Sequence record: KJ190158
From: Escherichia phage FFH2
Length of the DNA stretch: 64,000 bases
Reading direction: 5' to 3' (one strand)
Below, piece by piece: positions 18,626-54,807 of this stretch. The notes below the pieces were generated by a model, which had not been told where the DNA came from, searched no databases, and saw nothing but the letters and a program-made list of their open reading frames with translations. The first letter of the stretch is position 1, and each line of letters starts with the position of its first letter. The position numbers were made by a program, and so were the translations under genes.

Positions 18626-18859
18626 ATGAAAGTTAAATTTCTTACAGATTTAGGGTACCCTTCCTTGGTTGACTGCATTGGTAAAATTGTGGAAGCAAAA
18701 CGGCTATCTGCAAACGATAATGTTGTCATGGTTAAGGGAAAAGATTTATTAGCTGCAGGTGCAGAGTCTGGCAGGATCTCTCCTGACTATACATATTACT
18801 TATCTTTAAGTAATCTACCAGAACGAGGCGGCAAAGGCCTTGAAGTTGTGGAGGAGTGA
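18626..18859 (+). CDS. small paralogue family A member (MKVKxL...VEVVEE)
   Basis: MKVKFLTD...KGKDLLAAGAE...LEVVEE. It shares its N-terminal, central G-x-D-L-x-AAGA and C-terminal motifs with 22289-22513 and 22503-22757. Confidence 0.65.
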   Translation: MKVKFLTDLGYPSLVDCIGKIVEAKRLSANDNVVMVKGKDLLAAGAESGRISPDYTYYLSLSNLPERGGKGLEVVEE

Positions 18860-22007: not shown

Positions 22008-22289
22008 ATGAAAAAGATTAACAGTGGTGAAGTTGAGTTTAAACTTGTCGGGAAAGGCACTTACTGGGAAGTTCGTCAAAAGGTATATTTGTTCGGTCTT
22101 ATTCCCTATTGGTCTAAATTCTACTGGGGAGCTAACGAGTGGGGAAGATACGCCACCAAATCAATGGCACTTATTGGTATAGCAGAGTACATTGCAGCCA
22201 GAGATAGGGTTGGAGACACTTATTACTATACTGCGGACGATATTCGTAACAGTGTTTACGTCCCACAACCACCTGATGGAGACCGTTGA
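22008..22289 (+). CDS. hypothetical protein
   Basis: ATG 22008. The stop overlaps the next start. Confidence 0.55.
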   Translation: MKKINSGEVEFKLVGKGTYWEVRQKVYLFGLIPYWSKFYWGANEWGRYATKSMALIGIAEYIAARDRVGDTYYYTADDIRNSVYVPQPPDGDR

Positions 22290-22513
22290 TGAAAGTTAAA
22301 GTTTTAGATTCAAGCTTCTATATTGGTCAGGAGCCTTTAGTAGGAAAAGTGTTTACTGCTGTCCCTAACGAAGATTACCCTGACCTTTTAAAAATAAAAG
22401 GAGCAGATCTTATTGCCGCTGGTGCATCTCAGGAATGCTTTGACAGTCAGTGGACCTACAACTTTGCCCTAGGTGAGGATGTAGAGGTAGTGGAGGACGA
22501 TCATGAAGGTTAA
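22289..22513 (+). CDS. small paralogue family A member
   Basis: MKVKVLDSSFYIGQEPLVGKV...KGADLIAAGAS...GEDVEVVED. Confidence 0.65.
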   Translation: MKVKVLDSSFYIGQEPLVGKVFTAVPNEDYPDLLKIKGADLIAAGASQECFDSQWTYNFALGEDVEVVEDDHEG

Positions 22514-22757
22514 AATTCTTGATTCTAACGTCTACTTGGGACAATCCTTCCTGAATGGAAAGGTCGTTCCTGCGGTATACTTTGAAGGGTTGCCGTGGGA
22601 TGATCCTGTGCGGCAACATCACAGTTATGTAGGCCACAACGTGGTGTTTATCTTGGGATCAGACCTGATCACCGCTGGTGCACCTGAATATTATTTCGGG
22701 GAAGAGTCCTACTATGCCTTTGGGGTAGGGTCAGATGCAGATATTGTAGAGCTGTGA
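22503..22757 (+). CDS. small paralogue family A member
   Basis: MKVKILDSNVYLGQSFLNGKV...GSDLITAGAP...GVGSDADIVEL. Confidence 0.65.
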   Translation: MKVKILDSNVYLGQSFLNGKVVPAVYFEGLPWDDPVRQHHSYVGHNVVFILGSDLITAGAPEYYFGEESYYAFGVGSDADIVEL

Positions 22758-22769
22758 TGGGTAACCGTT

Positions 22770-23168
22770 GTGAAAAATAAACTGTTTAAAGTTACAATGA
22801 AAATTCGCGGGGCTTGGAGCGTAAAGCAAGGGCGTATTCCAGAATTTGAGAAAGACTTCTACGTAGTCTCCACCTCGGAGGAGGCTGCATGCTGGCAGGC
22901 TGGCTATGCCTATGCAAGAACCTGGTACGAAGGGTACCAGACTGGGGGCTATGACGGAGAAATTATCAGCAAGGGTGTAGAAGAAATTAATGTGTTGACA
23001 AGTGAAAAAGTTTTTGTTATAGTGCATCCAGATTCCAGAGTGAAGCATTACTGGAATGCCAGAACAAAAACTTGGACACCGTTTGCAGATTCTGCTACGC
23101 CACTTTTAAACCAGAAAGCTCTTGACTCTGCCCCAAGTTATGGGGTTGTTGAAGAAAAGCTAAACTGA
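22770..23168 (+). CDS. hypothetical protein, paralogue of 24975-25370
   Basis: It shares FV..HP.S....YW......WTP....AT.L with the 131-aa protein at 24975. The start is uncertain (GTG 22770 or ATG 22797). Confidence 0.55.
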   Translation: MKNKLFKVTMKIRGAWSVKQGRIPEFEKDFYVVSTSEEAACWQAGYAYARTWYEGYQTGGYDGEIISKGVEEINVLTSEKVFVIVHPDSRVKHYWNARTKTWTPFADSATPLLNQKALDSAPSYGVVEEKLN

Positions 23169-23185: not shown

Positions 23186-23476
23186 ATGATGGATTTAATT
23201 CTAAATATTGATAACGCAGGAGAGTTTAAAGACGATGGTGTAACAAGCATGGACAAACCCTGCTCTGCTAAGGTTGACTCAAAATGGACCTACAAGTTTG
23301 ACGGAGAGATCTTCGCAAATGATGAGAAGGTTGTAGATGCTGCAGCCATTTTAAACGCTCTAGGGTACGACCCTGTGAATTCTTTGATCAAGGATCCTGT
23401 TGAGTTTGCAGAGTATGTTCGAAAAATGGCAGATCTTGCTGTGGATATTTTAAAAACTATCGACAACAAGCTGTAA
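23186..23476 (+). CDS. hypothetical acidic protein
   Basis: 96-aa ORF with a GTGAGGTG SD. Confidence 0.55.
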   Translation: MMDLILNIDNAGEFKDDGVTSMDKPCSAKVDSKWTYKFDGEIFANDEKVVDAAAILNALGYDPVNSLIKDPVEFAEYVRKMADLAVDILKTIDNKL

Positions 23477-23482
23477 AAACTG

Positions 23483-23511
23483 TTGACACAACGCTTCAGA
23501 TTTAGTATCAT
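23483..23511 (+). promoter_or_regulatory. sigma70-type promoter in front of the HPF-like gene
   Basis: TTGACA-17 nt-TATCAT, followed by an AGAGGG-tttggtt-CCCTCT hairpin (23521-23539) and an AAGGA SD. Confidence 0.65.
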
Positions 23512-23558
23512 TGTTTTCAAAGAGGGTTTGGTTCCCTCTTCTTTAAAAGGAACACGTT

Positions 23559-23876
23559 ATGCAAATTGAAATCACTGGCAACGTAGAAATCACTGAAGGT
23601 ATGGTGTCTTTCATTTCCCACAAAATGTCTAAGCTGGAGCGTTTGCACCCCTCTGCCAACTATGCACGTGTGAGTGTAAAAGTTGAAAATGATCACCAGG
23701 AAGTTATGGCGCTCATTTTTGACAATTCTGGAAAAGAAGTTATTGCCAGGGCTAAAGGTAGTGATGCTTACGAGGCAACTGACCGTATGGTAGATGTTGC
23801 AGCACGTCAGCTGGCTAAATGCGGTGGAAAGAAAGGTAAGGGGAAAGGCAAAGTAAAGATTGACTTTGGAGAATGA
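23559..23876 (+). CDS. hpf: Ribosome hibernation promoting factor / RaiA (S30EA) family protein
   Basis: MQIEITGNVEITEGMVSFISHKMSKLERL...VSVKVEN...GSDAYEATDRMVDVAARQLAK aligns along its length with E. coli HPF (MQLNITGNNVEITEALREFVTAKFAKLEQY...VVLKVEK...GQDMYAAIDGLIDKLARQLTK). It is the short form, with a basic KGKGKGK tail. Confidence 0.8.
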   Translation: MQIEITGNVEITEGMVSFISHKMSKLERLHPSANYARVSVKVENDHQEVMALIFDNSGKEVIARAKGSDAYEATDRMVDVAARQLAKCGGKKGKGKGKVKIDFGE

Positions 23877-23885
23877 GGTGCTACA

Positions 23886-23987
23886 ATGGGCGTGATTAAG
23901 AAACTAGTCCCAAATGTAGAGATTGCATGCTTTGAAATTATGTTTGCAATCGCAGTTGTAGTTAATGTGTTAGGTTACGGCTATTAA
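23886..23987 (+). CDS. hydrophobic micro-protein (33 aa)
   Basis: MGVIKKLVPNVEIACFEIMFAIAVVVNVLGYGY with a GAGGTG SD. Below the ORF-track cutoff. Confidence 0.4.
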   Translation: MGVIKKLVPNVEIACFEIMFAIAVVVNVLGYGY

Positions 23988-24013: not shown

Positions 24014-24283
24014 ATGAAAATTAAATTATTCAAAACTGAGCTGGCAGACAAAAACTGTGGACTGGTTGAAGGCATGATTGTCGAAGCACGACCAGTTGAC
24101 TATATGAAGGTGGTTCGTGATGCCCTGGGTGAAGGTTTTGATCTGATGGAGCCAGCTCTGCGAGAAGATGTTATCGAGATGGCTAAAAAGCACACACCTG
24201 AAGGAATGGTGGTGTTTGTTGCACCAGGTAACGGAGAAGAGTTGATTGTAACTCCGGATGTGTATGAGATTGTAGAGGAATAA
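24014..24283 (+). CDS. small paralogue family A-related protein
   Basis: MKIKLFKTE...VVFVAPGNGEELIVTPDVYEIVEE. GAGGAGA SD. Confidence 0.6.
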   Translation: MKIKLFKTELADKNCGLVEGMIVEARPVDYMKVVRDALGEGFDLMEPALREDVIEMAKKHTPEGMVVFVAPGNGEELIVTPDVYEIVEE

Positions 24284-24374
24284 TCCTGCTTGGATTAGCA
24301 TACTTCCTCGACAAGGAAGGTTTGTAATTATTTGTGGGAAAGGAATCCCAATCTCTTACCATAGGTGATACTAT

Positions 24375-24642: not shown

Positions 24643-24975
24643 ATGAAAGTACGCTTTATTGGTGAAACAATTCCTGTGCATCTCCGGTCGCCTGAAGATT
24701 CTGCAGATCTTGCATCTCAGAAGGCGAGAGGTTATGATAAGAAAGTAATCTCAACCGATGTAGAACTTGAGGCTACTAGTCTACCTGACCCTGCTGCATT
24801 CTTTAATCATTATGGATACTATTTCAGCAATCTGATGAATATCGGTGAGCTTGTGTTTATTAGTGGTGGAGAAATTGTTAGCAAGCTTGGCGGCGATCCG
24901 GATGTCTTTCATGAAACCTGTCCTTTTGCATTTGTGGTAGGTTCAGATGTGGAAGTTATTGAGGAGGTGCGGTAA
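24643..24975 (+). CDS. small paralogue family A member
   Basis: MKVRFIGE...LVFISGGEIVSKLGGDP...FVVGSDVEVIEEVR. The start is set at ATG 24643, after the upstream stop. Confidence 0.6.
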   Translation: MKVRFIGETIPVHLRSPEDSADLASQKARGYDKKVISTDVELEATSLPDPAAFFNHYGYYFSNLMNIGELVFISGGEIVSKLGGDPDVFHETCPFAFVVGSDVEVIEEVR

Positions 24976-25370
24976 TGGTAAGCCTATACCGTGTTGAGTA
25001 TAGCTCAGATACTGTGTACAACGTAAGAAGCAAAGATCGCAGCGACAGAGTGCAAGAAATGTATGTTCTTGCCGACAGTCCGTTATCTGCAGCGTTCAAG
25101 GCAGGGGCTCTTGCATCTCGTTGGAAATTTGAAGGCGGATCTTTCTATGAAGAAACCCTTGAAGATTCTGTTGTTATTTCTTCTGTAGAGGTTTCAGATG
25201 ACTACGAAGGGAAAAAGTTCGTAATGCGGCACCCACACAGCAACATTGCGTACTACTGGGATGTTCTGAACAACGAGTGGACCCCAGATCTTCAGAAGGC
25301 TACTGTGCTAACACCGTTTTTGGCAGATAAGTTCCCACCAGAAGGTAATTTATCCGCACTGTTTCAGTAA
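24975..25370 (+). CDS. hypothetical protein, paralogue of 22770-23168
   Basis: FVMRHPHSNIAYYWDVLNNEWTPDLQKATVLTP compares with FVIVHPDSRVKHYWNARTKTWTPFADSATPLLN. Confidence 0.6.
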   Translation: MVSLYRVEYSSDTVYNVRSKDRSDRVQEMYVLADSPLSAAFKAGALASRWKFEGGSFYEETLEDSVVISSVEVSDDYEGKKFVMRHPHSNIAYYWDVLNNEWTPDLQKATVLTPFLADKFPPEGNLSALFQ

Positions 25371-51540: not shown

Positions 51541-52383
51541 CATCTGTTCAGGTAGGTCGTTAAGCTACCCCGCACCATTACGTGCATAGCCATACAGTTT
51601 CCTGTATGGATCGGACTACCTCACTGCCTTGGTAACAAGGCACCTCCCATTTCGACCGCACTTGCTGGCCTACTCTACTCGCTTCTTCACACCAACCTAT
51701 GTTGGAGCTATGCTTTCGATAGTCTCTGAACGTTACTACCAGGTGTAGTTTTTAGAGATATGTTTCCACTGTCTTCTTTGCTTTATAGCCCTGACGGTCT
51801 CATAAGGATATCCAAGATCCCTAATCTCGCATTGTCGTAGACCACTCTGCAACAGTTCGCAAATCTCTATTACCTCATCTTCTGTCAGCACAGCGTTAGC
51901 ATTATACTCACCAACTGGCCTTACTCTGAGGTCATTATCATAGGCGTGCTTGATATTTCCACCAGGGGTGGTCCATTCTAGGTTCCAGTATGCATTGTTG
52001 TACTTATTCCCATCCTTATGGTTCACCCATGTGAGTCTTTCAGGATCTGGGTTTGATACAAAGCATTCAGCAACCAGGTGGTGGACACCTTTTGTGCACT
52101 GCTTCCCCTCGATTAGCATGGTTACGCAAAGGTAACCTCTACCATTATCAAAACAAAACATTGTTGTATGATCACGTTTCGATAAAGGTATTGTTCCATC
52201 ATCAAACACGGTATACCCGTGATAATCAGCTGTTCTAGCCATTTTAACTACACCCCTTTAGTCTTCGCTGCGGATTAGCATATTGAGCTTTTACCATACT
52301 CAGGTGTAAAAGTCAACTTAGCTTCCCCGTCAATTAAAGAGGTTATTCGACATAGATTACTCTATGAAGCCACAATGTTATTT
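51541..52383 (-). mobile_element. Group I intron in the DNA polymerase gene carrying an HNH ORF
   Basis: Minus strand: exon 1 ends ...UACCAU, which can pair with the intron UGUGG (U.G at the splice site). The intron ends ...ACAGAUG. P7 candidates are GACUA (5' part) and UAGUC (3' part). About 135 nt and 195 nt of GC-rich noncoding flanks surround the HNH ORF. Splicing restores the HDE of pol A motif C. Confidence 0.8.
51736..52242 (-). CDS. HNH homing endonuclease (intron-encoded)
   Basis: WVNHKDGNKYNNAYWNLEWTT is an HNH motif. The C terminus has an HTH-like region (LRQCEIRDLGYPYETVRAIKQRR). Confidence 0.85.
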   Translation of the reverse strand: MARTADYHGYTVFDDGTIPLSKRDHTTMFCFDNGRGYLCVTMLIEGKQCTKGVHHLVAECFVSNPDPERLTWVNHKDGNKYNNAYWNLEWTTPGGNIKHAYDNDLRVRPVGEYNANAVLTEDEVIEICELLQSGLRQCEIRDLGYPYETVRAIKQRRQWKHISKNYTW

Positions 52384-54807
52384 ATGGTAATAAATAATAC
52401 GACGAACACCTTCATCGTACCACCCACGCTTCACCATTTGGTGGTGCATGAGTATCCCAACTAAGTCACACAACGATGCACCACCATTTTGTTGGTATGC
52501 ATTAAGTAAAGAGTGTTTAGATCGGGTCCAGATGGCATGACCATCAAAAGAGTAGATAAACTTCTTACCCGTTGCTTCCCAGAATTTCTCCAGATCCTCT
52601 TTACGGCCCTTAAGACCAGGGTTGGCATCCCAAAGCGCATCGATTACCCTTTGTCCCAACTCTGGAGAGATGTCCAGCATATCTGCAACTTTATCTTTTT
52701 GTGCCCCGTACATAACCCCATACGTGATAGGTTTACCGTCGTTACGGGACACCTCTCTGCCTGCTACTTTTGTATATGCCTCAGCATTGTTTTGGTGTGC
52801 GTCTCCGTTACTTACAACATCATAATACAAGCCGTTGTCGAACTCAAAGGCACCCCAAGCCCCGATAAGCTGCTCTAAGTTGGACCCGTCAATACCGATC
52901 TCAAAGTATCCAGGAGGAACACCCCACAGACTACGCATCTCTTTACCCATAACCACTTTAGGAGATGGTTTAGGCATGTTTGCACAAATACTGTGTTTCT
53001 GTCTGGAAGTGTTTGTTAATCCAGAGCTTTTAGCAGGAAGCTTATGGTCAATCTTCAAACGTGGGTGATTAAGAAGACCAGTGTCAACCTTATCCTCCTT
53101 GATTGGATCAAGTACCGATCTGCGGTTTCGCAATGATAACCATAAGACGATATCTTTAGCCATCTCTCCGTTCAATTTTTCAAGATTCGGACACAGGTGT
53201 CCAAACGTATCTTTCAGTTGCGGAGAAGTAATAAGTGCCCTAGCTTTTCTACGTATTTTCCCGAATACTTCCTTTTTAATCCTTTCGGAGTTAGGAAAGC
53301 TTCGGAACTTGTGCACTGTTGTCTGAAACTTAGCATCAGTTTTGTTCCAGAAGTTGATAATTAGGTCACAATACTCTGACTCTAAAAGCTCGTCCATGTA
53401 TGCATATACTCGTGCATCAACATCTGCATCAGGTAGAGCTTTCTTCTTGCTGTCTTTAGTTACATCCTTAGTTCTCCACATTGTCGGAAGCCAACCAGCA
53501 CTGATCAGGTATCGCTTAATGTCGTCCTGATTGCTGATTTTCATAGGTATCTTGCAGTCAGGCATTCGCTTCTGCTGCAGATCGCTTATTGCCTGATCCA
53601 TCAGCTCTTTAGGCAAAGGTTGTGGTGTGGAGGTGCCCTTAATATAGCCTCTCAAGAAATCAGCCATCTTATCGTGGTCTTTGCAGCCCATCTCTTCACA
53701 CCATTTTATCCCCATTTTACTGACATCTCCTGTGGAGGTAAATGCTCGCTTAGGTGGGGCTTTGAACTCTAAAGCGCTCATGTCTACAGGATAGCCAAGC
53801 TTATCTTTTAACCATTTCCAACCATTATTGGAGATTGTCCCATCTTGGTTAAACGGCTTTTCAGGGAACTTGGGCCGCTGAGACATTGACAGCTCTTTTA
53901 AAGGTAGTTGTGGTTCAACACGATCAGCTATTTCTTTCATCCACGCATCGCAACGGTCACGTAAAGCAATAGCCCCGTCTATGTCGAAATACACACCCTG
54001 ACGGGCCTGCAGCTCCATCAGGAAGTGCTGCAGCATGCCTCGACGTAGTGCGTTCTTCCAGGTGATCTTCTTGAACCCTTTCGGCTTCTCTTTGGCTGGA
54101 TCGTACATAAAGTTCTGCATGTCAGATTTGCCGTAGAATACACCTTTTGATTCCGCTACCAGCTCTTTCCAGAGCAGCTCCTGGATGATAACGTCCTCGA
54201 ATACACGATCCACATACTTCCACAACGGAAGATCGCGCCAGTCATCAATTTGAACTTTCTGGTTACCAAGGGCGTAGCCCCATGCCATAAGGCCGTGAGG
54301 ACCAACAGGCTGCATTTTCTTAGTAACCGGGTTGAATACAGAGTCCGGACAACCTTTTGGTAAAGGGCGATCAGGCCACAAGATTCGGCTCATCGCCAAC
54401 GTATCAAACAGGTTAACCTGGTGGTCGTTGATAGTCCCCATACATTTAGGATCACGGAACATATCAAAATGAATACCGGATAATCTCTCCATCAGCATAA
54501 AGTCATAACTGTAGCAGTTATGGCAGTTCAAAGCTGTTGGTGACCAGTCGGAATTGCCTGTAAGCCAACCCTCCAACTCCGAAAAATCTGCTATGCGAAC
54601 TTCAAAATCCTTATAAAGAGTTTTCTTTGCCAGAATAAAGTTCTTAGCCTTCTCTATATCCTCCTCGGAGTAGTGTGTGCGGTCATTTAGAGGAAGGAAC
54701 AGCATAAAACGGTTCTTATTCAGCTCTTTAAACAGGCCGCAATGATAATAAAGATCTGGGTCTTCCAAAAGCCCTGAGGCCTCCAGATCGAAGCACCAAT
54801 TACTCAT
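52384..54807 (-). CDS. DNA polymerase (family A, T7 gp5-like), exon 1
   Basis: N-terminal 3'-5' exonuclease motif WCFDLEASGL (DxE). Polymerase motifs follow (DGSNLEQL region, KPITYGVMYG motif B-like). As a plain ORF it stops one codon after ...IIYYH, inside motif C. Confidence 0.9.

Follow-up and report, generated by a model that had tools for sequence, protein, structure and literature searches.

An HPF/RaiA-family protein of Vequintavirus coliphages: family membership, conservation and possible action at the host ribosome

The short hibernation factor HPF (YhbH), known from Escherichia coli and Vibrio cholerae, and RaiA (also YfiA or protein Y) have a common fold and bind the same site on the ribosome. 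RaiA carries a C-terminal extension that runs past helix alpha-2 toward the RMF site and is linked to 70S rather than 100S hibernation. In E. coli this tail ends in an acidic stretch, and HPF is encoded in the rpoN operon. The subject of this report is a virus-encoded relative of these proteins, the 105-residue product of a gene found in a stretch of 64,000 nucleotides (hereafter the window) from Escherichia phage FFH2 (sequence record KJ190158), an rV5-like phage of the genus Vequintavirus. The phage gene stands behind a sigma-70-type promoter instead of in such an operon. Its product shares with short HPF (2rql, 6h4n, 4hei) the fold, the length class and an alignment over residues 1–89, and with RaiA (4v8i, 1n3g) the fold. 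The equivalents of K23, K26, D75, R83 and K87 of short HPF are present, and the C-terminus is likewise basic, with lysines at alternate positions. By contrast with short HPF (about 95 residues), however, the tail is 10 residues longer, rich in glycine and lysine, and predicted to be disordered; it is shorter than the RaiA tail, and strongly basic.

If it acts as its relatives do, the protein is among the very few ribosome hibernation factors encoded by viruses. Other phage S30AE proteins (phrog_8990; AFC21633 of Cronobacter phage GAP32; Xanthomonas phage XaC1) are likewise PF02482 members encoded in large myovirus genomes. In the tree of Mizuno et al. (PMC6375957), the GAP32 protein groups with Firmicutes and the rV5 proteins with gammaproteobacterial sequences. 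This separate placement, together with membership of separate PHROG families (233.8 bits for phrog_12469 as against only 29 bits for phrog_8990), suggests that the rV5-type and the other phage S30AE genes were acquired independently. A more distant comparison is provided by Acb4 of Bacillus phage SPO1 (9e4w), a tetramer with extra N-terminal helices and nucleotide pockets, whose discoverers noted a structural similarity to hibernation factors in a 2024 preprint; the extra helices are not seen in the model of the present protein.

The first-pass annotation of the window knew of no characterised phage homologue, which proved wrong. The gene has been annotated since the founding rV5 record (DQ832317; NC_011041), where it is ORF144 and its promoter is entered as 'Sigma70-type promoter; P144', and the window holds the same gene, with the position, P144 and the neighbours shared. 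The rV5 product (gp144, ABI79209) was listed among virus-encoded ribosomal proteins, and tested, by Mizuno et al. in 2019 (Nat Commun 10:752; PMC6375957). A later virome study (PMC6969025) refers to hpf of rV5 as a gene described before. Gene, family assignment, promoter and the hypothesis of competition with the host factor are already known from the rV5 records and the 2019 paper; no later functional study of a phage HPF was found in literature searches. What the present analysis adds is that the gene has no close cellular donor, that it is under purifying selection, that about half of the ribosome-contact positions are retained, and that the basic tail varies. The picture is thereby sharpened to one of an ancient acquisition in which core rRNA-contact residues were kept and four others lost. 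The genus in which the gene is fixed and strongly constrained comprises coliphages used in therapy and biocontrol. The function of the gene in infection bears on how lytic phages deal with dormant, stationary-phase hosts, a matter relevant to phage therapy.

Family membership and predicted fold

The open reading frame (ORF) is as first described, and its assignment to the S30AE/HPF-RaiA family is, on sequence and predicted fold together, virtually certain. Profile searches, which the first-pass annotation had proposed as a check, support it: the protein scores 48.2 bits against PF02482 (Ribosomal_S30AE; gathering cut-off 23.7) over residues 3–88 and profile positions 1–83 of 88, and 46.0 bits against TIGR00741 (HPF/YfiA family; cut-off 40.9). 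This is the only PF02482 domain, there are no other Pfam matches at E <= 1, and the C-terminal dimerisation domain of long HPF is absent, so that the earlier description as a short form stands. The best sequence matches in the PDB are to E. coli HPF (2rql, 4v8h, 6h4n; E from about 1e-11 to 5e-12). They align residues 1–89 with residues 1–89 and contain all the shared segments that had been quoted; for 2rql, phmmer gives E = 5e-12, and the identity to E. coli HPF is 41–44%. In a family alignment of 22 sequences, seven positions (T12, K22, G58, A63, D69, Y71 and D75) show conservation of 90% or more, and the phage protein keeps every one of them. The core is clearly closer in sequence to HPF than to RaiA.

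The AlphaFold2 model agrees with this. Its mean predicted local distance difference test score (pLDDT) is 82.5, about 90 in the core and below 50 for residues 91–105, and its elements are strands 2–7, 33–43, 46–55 and 60–67 and helices 13–29 and 70–92. A Foldseek comparison of this predicted model with the PDB returned only HPF, RaiA or protein Y among the top 36 entries, headed by V. cholerae HPF (4hei_A; template modelling (TM) scores 0.82/0.93, root mean square deviation 1.0 Å) and ribosome-bound E. coli HPF (6h4n_x; 0.81/0.90, 1.1 Å).

Membership of the family of Acb4-like nucleotide sponges was considered and rejected, since 9e4w_N comes behind these 36 structures, at rank 49, with TM scores of 0.51/0.60 and 14% identity.

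Distribution, origin and selection

The protein is found at 92–99% identity in 116 phage records, on a par with the DNA polymerase of the window, which is found at an identity of at least 90% in 117; at the DNA level, 117 phage records match a 1.4-kb stretch containing the gene, with identities of 90–99.8%. No HPF match was found in relatives whose polymerase is 55–60% identical (Klebsiella, Raoultella, Pectobacterium, Enterobacter and phi92-like phages), and with E. coli HPF as the query the other phage matches are a handful, such as that in the Xanthomonas jumbo phage XaC1 and some short fragments. By these searches the gene is a fixed hallmark of one genus, Vequintavirus, and rare elsewhere. 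The protein of the window is 98% identical to that of rV5 (ABI79209), with two substitutions, F52L and K64R, of which the former falls on the equivalent of HPF T53, a site of contact with rRNA where other members of the clade differ as well.

Beyond the genus the gene is isolated. When 1.84 billion cluster representatives were searched exhaustively with HMMER, only 24 matched at E <= 1e-3, the best of them outside the phage clade being 45% identical (E = 3.6e-07), and a word-indexed protein search returned the phage clade only. An orthologue, 63–64% identical, is encoded in a sister lineage known from phage contigs of about 125–137 kb, where it occupies the syntenic position within a small-ORF block of the same kind. 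The sequence comparisons show a gene that was acquired once, before the genus diversified, and that now stands apart as a divergent branch to which no cellular donor is close.

A recent origin by capture from E. coli, suggested in the 2019 paper (PMC6375957), is not supported: with E. coli HPF at 41–44% identity and nothing above 45% outside the phage clade in the HMMER search, cellular sequences are too distant to fit it.

The core of the gene is under strong purifying selection. Within the genus, the ratio of non-synonymous to synonymous substitution rates (dN/dS, Nei-Gojobori, codons 1–88) lies between 0.03 and 0.20, with dS reaching 0.75; relative to the sister lineage, synonymous sites are saturated while dN is about 0.25. 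None of the copies examined has a broken reading frame. That the protein has retained a function is supported by this selection, by the spread over 116 records, and by the syntenic 63% orthologue that lies behind the same -35 box.

Possible action at the ribosome

Contact positions were taken from the HPF proteins of E. hormaechei, P. aeruginosa and E. coli (bioRxiv 10.1101/2025.10.07.680626) and transferred by sequence mapping alone. The contacts described there include R83 with m4C1402, T53 with m2G966, and stacking of Y/H30 on A790. Of the known positions of contact with the ribosome, the phage protein keeps about half: K26, E44, N57, D75, R83 and K87 are present, and Q29 is replaced by arginine. 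Beyond position 88 the tail extends for 17 residues, as compared with 7 in HPF and about 25 in E. coli RaiA. The Lys/Gly tail noted in the first-pass annotation is indeed there, at residues 89–105, and it raises the isoelectric point from 5.9 for the core to 8.7. Its KGKGKGKVK run resembles the alternating lysines K87/K89/K91/K93 that form the basic patch of HPF. In the sister lineage the tail (SKSKGIDKRTAKWDY) has a different sequence and is still basic; to judge from these alignments, the tail is conserved in charge and not in sequence.

These features suggest a role of the following kind. Transcribed by the unmodified host RNA polymerase, the gene would be expressed early in infection, a timing proposed because its promoter is host-type (sigma-70) and near-consensus. 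The protein would then dock in the decoding (A/P-site) channel of the 30S subunit of vacant host ribosomes, as cellular HPF and RaiA do, through helix alpha-2 (R83, K87), the face of the beta-sheet and the lysine-rich C-terminus. Since the RaiA tail heads toward the RMF site, a course that is not evident for the tail of short HPF, the longer basic tail might lead to a RaiA-like outcome, in which the phage protein caps ribosomes and protects them in the 70S state, host HPF and RMF are barred from locking them into 100S dimers, and the ribosome pool stays intact and quickly reusable when slow-growing or stationary cells are infected. Binding to the ribosome with a protective or anti-dimer role is the reading preferred here, and I give it a probability of about one half. 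The fully specified counter-hibernation factor, whose core would occupy the decoding channel while its tail occludes the RMF/anti-Shine-Dalgarno region, blocking 100S formation and keeping 70S ribosomes for phage translation, is, taken as a whole, unlikely. If true, it would amount to a viral takeover of ribosome dormancy, something so far only proposed.

Several observations weigh against ribosome binding or against this mechanism. At four contact positions, again by mapping, the residue has been replaced: Y30L, with which the stacking on A790 is lost, R33S, K80V, and T53, which has become Leu, Phe or Arg according to the isolate and thus varies within the clade at the m2G966 contact. The strict family models also fail. 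The E. coli HPF equivalog model (NF007780/PRK10470) is the best-scoring NCBIfam model, but the 55.5 bits obtained are far below its cut-off of 125, so the protein is HPF-like and not an HPF equivalog; the RaiA equivalog model (NF007654/PRK10324) gives 17.4 against 158, and the RefSeq name that refers to RaiA is therefore generic, not specific. A mechanism depending precisely on the tail is disfavoured by the lack of conservation in the tail sequence and by frameshifts there in two records. In these, phages APCEc02 and Murica, single-base length changes in the GGGGAAAGG run shift the frame from codon 89 onwards and yield proteins of 101 and 99 residues, respectively; sequencing error or true slippage within the repetitive Lys/Gly tract may account for them. 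No RMF-like partner was found in the window with an RMF query, and literature searches turned up no data on expression timing in Vequintavirus.

Hibernation factors are peripheral ligands of the ribosome and tend to come off in high-salt washes. This matters for the ribosome profile on ectopic expression that the first-pass annotation had proposed as an experiment, as one such test, the only one published, exists for the rV5 protein and points, if anything, to non-binding. Mizuno et al. suggested that a viral HPF might compete with its cellular homologue and prevent the formation of ribosome dimers, thereby anticipating the competition idea of the first-pass annotation. With pBAD24 as the expression vector in E. 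coli, peptides of rV5 HPF were detected in the crude lysate, but none in purified 70S or 100S ribosomes, and the 100S peak was unchanged (PMC6375957). The cells had been harvested at an optical density (OD600) of 1, and ribosomes had been pelleted for 20 h through 1.1 M sucrose with 500 mM NH4Cl before the gradient. The authors called the result inconclusive, invoking the wrong growth phase, wash-off by salt or a genuine loss of binding, and the part of the text available mentions no host HPF or RaiA positive control (PMC6375957). Given the high-salt cushion, the OD600 = 1 cells and the lack of any mention there of a positive control, the negative carries little weight: it is weak evidence against stable ribosome binding, not a refutation.

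The same result is nonetheless what would be expected if the protein descended from a hibernation factor and no longer acted at the decoding site, the HPF fold having been exapted for another purpose. The absence of peptides from purified ribosomes and the unaffected 100S peak (PMC6375957) would then be taken at face value, and the replaced contacts (Y30L, R33S, T53L/F/R, K80V), the long isolated branch (nearest non-phage relative 45% identical, 24 matches among 1.84 billion) and the failure of both equivalog models would all find an explanation; there is even a precedent, in that the general fold is also the apparent evolutionary source of phage sponges such as the anti-CBASS protein Acb4. 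Exaptation nevertheless seems to me somewhat unlikely. The most conserved residues of the family are all kept, including the rRNA-contacting R83 and D75, and there would be little reason to keep these two for a non-ribosomal target. The model lies about 1 Å from HPF, while Acb4 (9e4w) is reached only at rank 49 (E = 0.026, TM 0.51) and its N-terminal helices and tetramer elements are not seen. Finally, the binding test was run under conditions that strip loosely bound factors.

Two further explanations fare less well than binding with a protective or anti-dimer role. The protein might be an early inhibitor that blocks free 30S subunits and 70S ribosomes and so suppresses protein synthesis by the host, including that of induced defence proteins, while phage mRNAs escape. 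HPF and RaiA occupy the positions of A- and P-site tRNA and of mRNA (bioRxiv 10.1101/2025.10.07.680626), so an excess of such a protein should inhibit initiation, and the gene lies behind a near-consensus sigma-70 promoter in a block of small genes. Shut-off of this kind is quite improbable all the same, as cultures expressing the rV5 protein overnight and in exponential phase grew to OD600 = 1 and had normal ribosome profiles, and toxicity is not reported (PMC6375957). Moreover, a blocker of the decoding site would be blind to the difference between phage and host mRNA, no element conferring selectivity is evident, and early expression is itself deduced from the promoter. As for a functionless passenger, a captured host gene drifting with no benefit to the phage, it would account for the negative binding test in the 2019 paper, for the lack of any reported phenotype and for the disruption of the tail in two records. 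It is hardly credible, being already contradicted by the selection and distribution data: dN/dS of 0.03–0.20 goes with substantial synonymous divergence, practically all genomes of the genus carry the gene, with its reading frame intact in the copies examined, and a lineage with saturated synonymous sites still has the orthologue, its position and its promoter.

Transcription, neighbourhood and annotation records

The features of the locus are listed in Table 1.

Table 1. Features in and around the HPF homologue of the window
Feature	Position	Strand	Remarks
Sigma-70-type promoter	23483..23511	+	TTGACA 23483-23488, 17-nt spacer, TATCAT 23506-23511; equals rV5 P144
Stem-loop AAGAGGG-N7-CCCTCTT	23520..23540	+	7 bp, 7-nt loop; near predicted transcript 5' end, between -10 box and Shine-Dalgarno sequence
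Shine-Dalgarno sequence AAGGA	23547..23551	+	7 nt 5' of ATG; read in sequence; invariant across genus alignment
HPF homologue, coding sequence	23559..23876	+	ATG start, 105 residues; short-form S30AE/HPF-RaiA, rV5 ORF144 homologue
Folded core of HPF homologue	23559..23822	+	AlphaFold2 model, Foldseek, dN/dS, invariant columns
C-terminal tail, residues 89-105, GGKKGKGKGKVKIDFGE	23823..23873	+	Lys/Gly-rich, basic, predicted disordered
33-residue hydrophobic ORF MGVIKKLVPNVEIACFEIMFAIAVVVNVLGYGY	23886..23987	+	rV5 ORF145 homologue; coding sequence annotated in rV5 and others
89-residue ORF, rV5 ORF146 homologue	24014..24283	+	probably last gene of the unit
Weak terminator-like site	24303-24319		terminator scan; downstream of 89-residue ORF

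The predicted promoter of the first-pass annotation (TTGACA-17-TATCAT) is indeed present, and it is conserved. It matches the consensus at 11 of 12 positions in a consensus scan and lies within the 82-nt gap between the end of the ORF before it, at 23476, and the gene; the predicted transcript start is at about 23518. Across 8 Vequintavirus genomes neither hexamer varies. In the upstream region of the divergent lineage (L002/L004) the exact AAACTGTTGACACA is kept, the -35 box and its flanks being invariant, and is followed, at the same spacing as in the window, by a TG-extended -10 box. The alignments support a conserved sigma-70-type promoter directly upstream of the HPF homologue. Such sites are modestly enriched in the 12-kb region scanned (34 as against 24.7 ± 4.9 in shuffled sequences), those with 11 of 12 matches being all on the coding strand (6/6); the rV5 genome paper reports 33 such predicted promoters (PMC3606486). 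The promoter was not, however, dedicated to this gene in the strict sense, since the two ORFs downstream are probably co-transcribed. Because the terminator scan found no terminator-like site between the HPF stop codon and these ORFs, nor any before 24303, the HPF homologue is the probable first gene of a three-gene unit.

Two other promoter-like sites are found nearby, neither of them annotated as a promoter in the rV5 stretch compared. One, TTGACT-16-TACAAT with an upstream TG (10/12; 23860-23887, plus strand), overlaps the last HPF codons; the other, TTGACA-17-TATAGT with an upstream TG (11/12; 22995-23023, plus strand), is inside a 132-residue ORF. In phage JES2013 (L010, position 301) the HPF homologue starts with GTG rather than ATG, and one further upstream base differs; this natural start-codon variant could lower translation.

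The hairpin that had also been pointed out upstream of the gene exists, but its significance is doubtful. Its minimum free energy is -9.9 kcal/mol (z = -0.36), and 70 of 200 dinucleotide shuffles fold equally well or better. Within the genus the arms are mostly kept and the loop varies; the single stem change, found in Murica and nomo, is uncompensated, and the genus alignment contains no covariation. In L002/L004 the hairpin is absent, and the GAGGG homologous to its 5' arm serves there as the Shine-Dalgarno sequence. As the sister lineage has kept the promoter and is without the hairpin, the former is ancestral and the latter a later, lineage-specific insertion. The candidate roles of conserved 5' element and terminator were both rejected, the fold being at the level of shuffled sequence, not terminator-like, and missing from the sister lineage.

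The gene lies inside a long block of small genes with no known function, as first described: a Pfam search assigned none of the nine flanking proteins to a family. Between 20519 and 34870 there is not one ORF of 150 or more residues, which fits the block of 88 genes, mostly small ORFs and including the HPF gene, described for rV5 (PMC3606486). Neither a second S30AE copy nor any tRNA gene was found in the 64-kb window. The 33-residue ORF, which starts 10 nt past the HPF stop codon, has no Pfam match, and its gene call is absent in the divergent lineage L002; it may encode a small membrane peptide co-transcribed with HPF. Two small families of paralogues, both without a Pfam family, flank the gene on the plus strand. 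One comprises 18626-18859, 22286-22513 and 22503-22757 (about 75–84 residues; E = 2e-14 and 2e-07); the other is the pair 22770-23168 and 24975-25370 (about 131 residues; E = 3e-08, 28% identity), with a common 'HP.S...YW......WTP' segment. Many small proteins of the block carry acidic runs at the C-terminus (VVEE, EVVDEE, EEDE).

Annotation of the locus is uneven from record to record. The HPF homologue, annotated in dozens of records besides DQ832317, goes by several names: 'sigma 54 modulation factor', 'hpf: ribosome hibernation promoting factor' or 'ribosome hibernation factor', with RefSeq using 'ribosome-associated translation inhibitor RaiA'. In OR062528.1, OR062525.1, MT884008.2 and MT884010.2 it bears the name 'ATP-dependent protease La Type I', a clear error for a PF02482 protein of 105 residues. 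In APCEc02, nomo, ECP32 and others the label 'sigma 54 modulation factor' is attached to the 89-residue gene (L005 757-864, L008 759-918, L009 756-909), and in APCEc02 the true HPF gene is a 'hypothetical protein'. The 89-residue ORF was considered as a second HPF-like gene and rejected, having no Pfam match and a BLASTP E value of 53 against the HPF homologue; the label looks like an off-by-two assignment copied by later annotations.

Among the matching records are also 18–21 unannotated 'Campylobacter phage' entries (MG065635-MG065690; host Campylobacter jejuni), 97–99.8% identical over the region and matching at this level over the DNA polymerase too; they are probably mis-assigned rV5-like coliphages or contaminants of phage preparations. 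In some relatives the DNA polymerase gene (52378-54807 on the minus strand of the window) is interrupted by an HNH endonuclease or intron-like insert and is returned by tblastn in two pieces.

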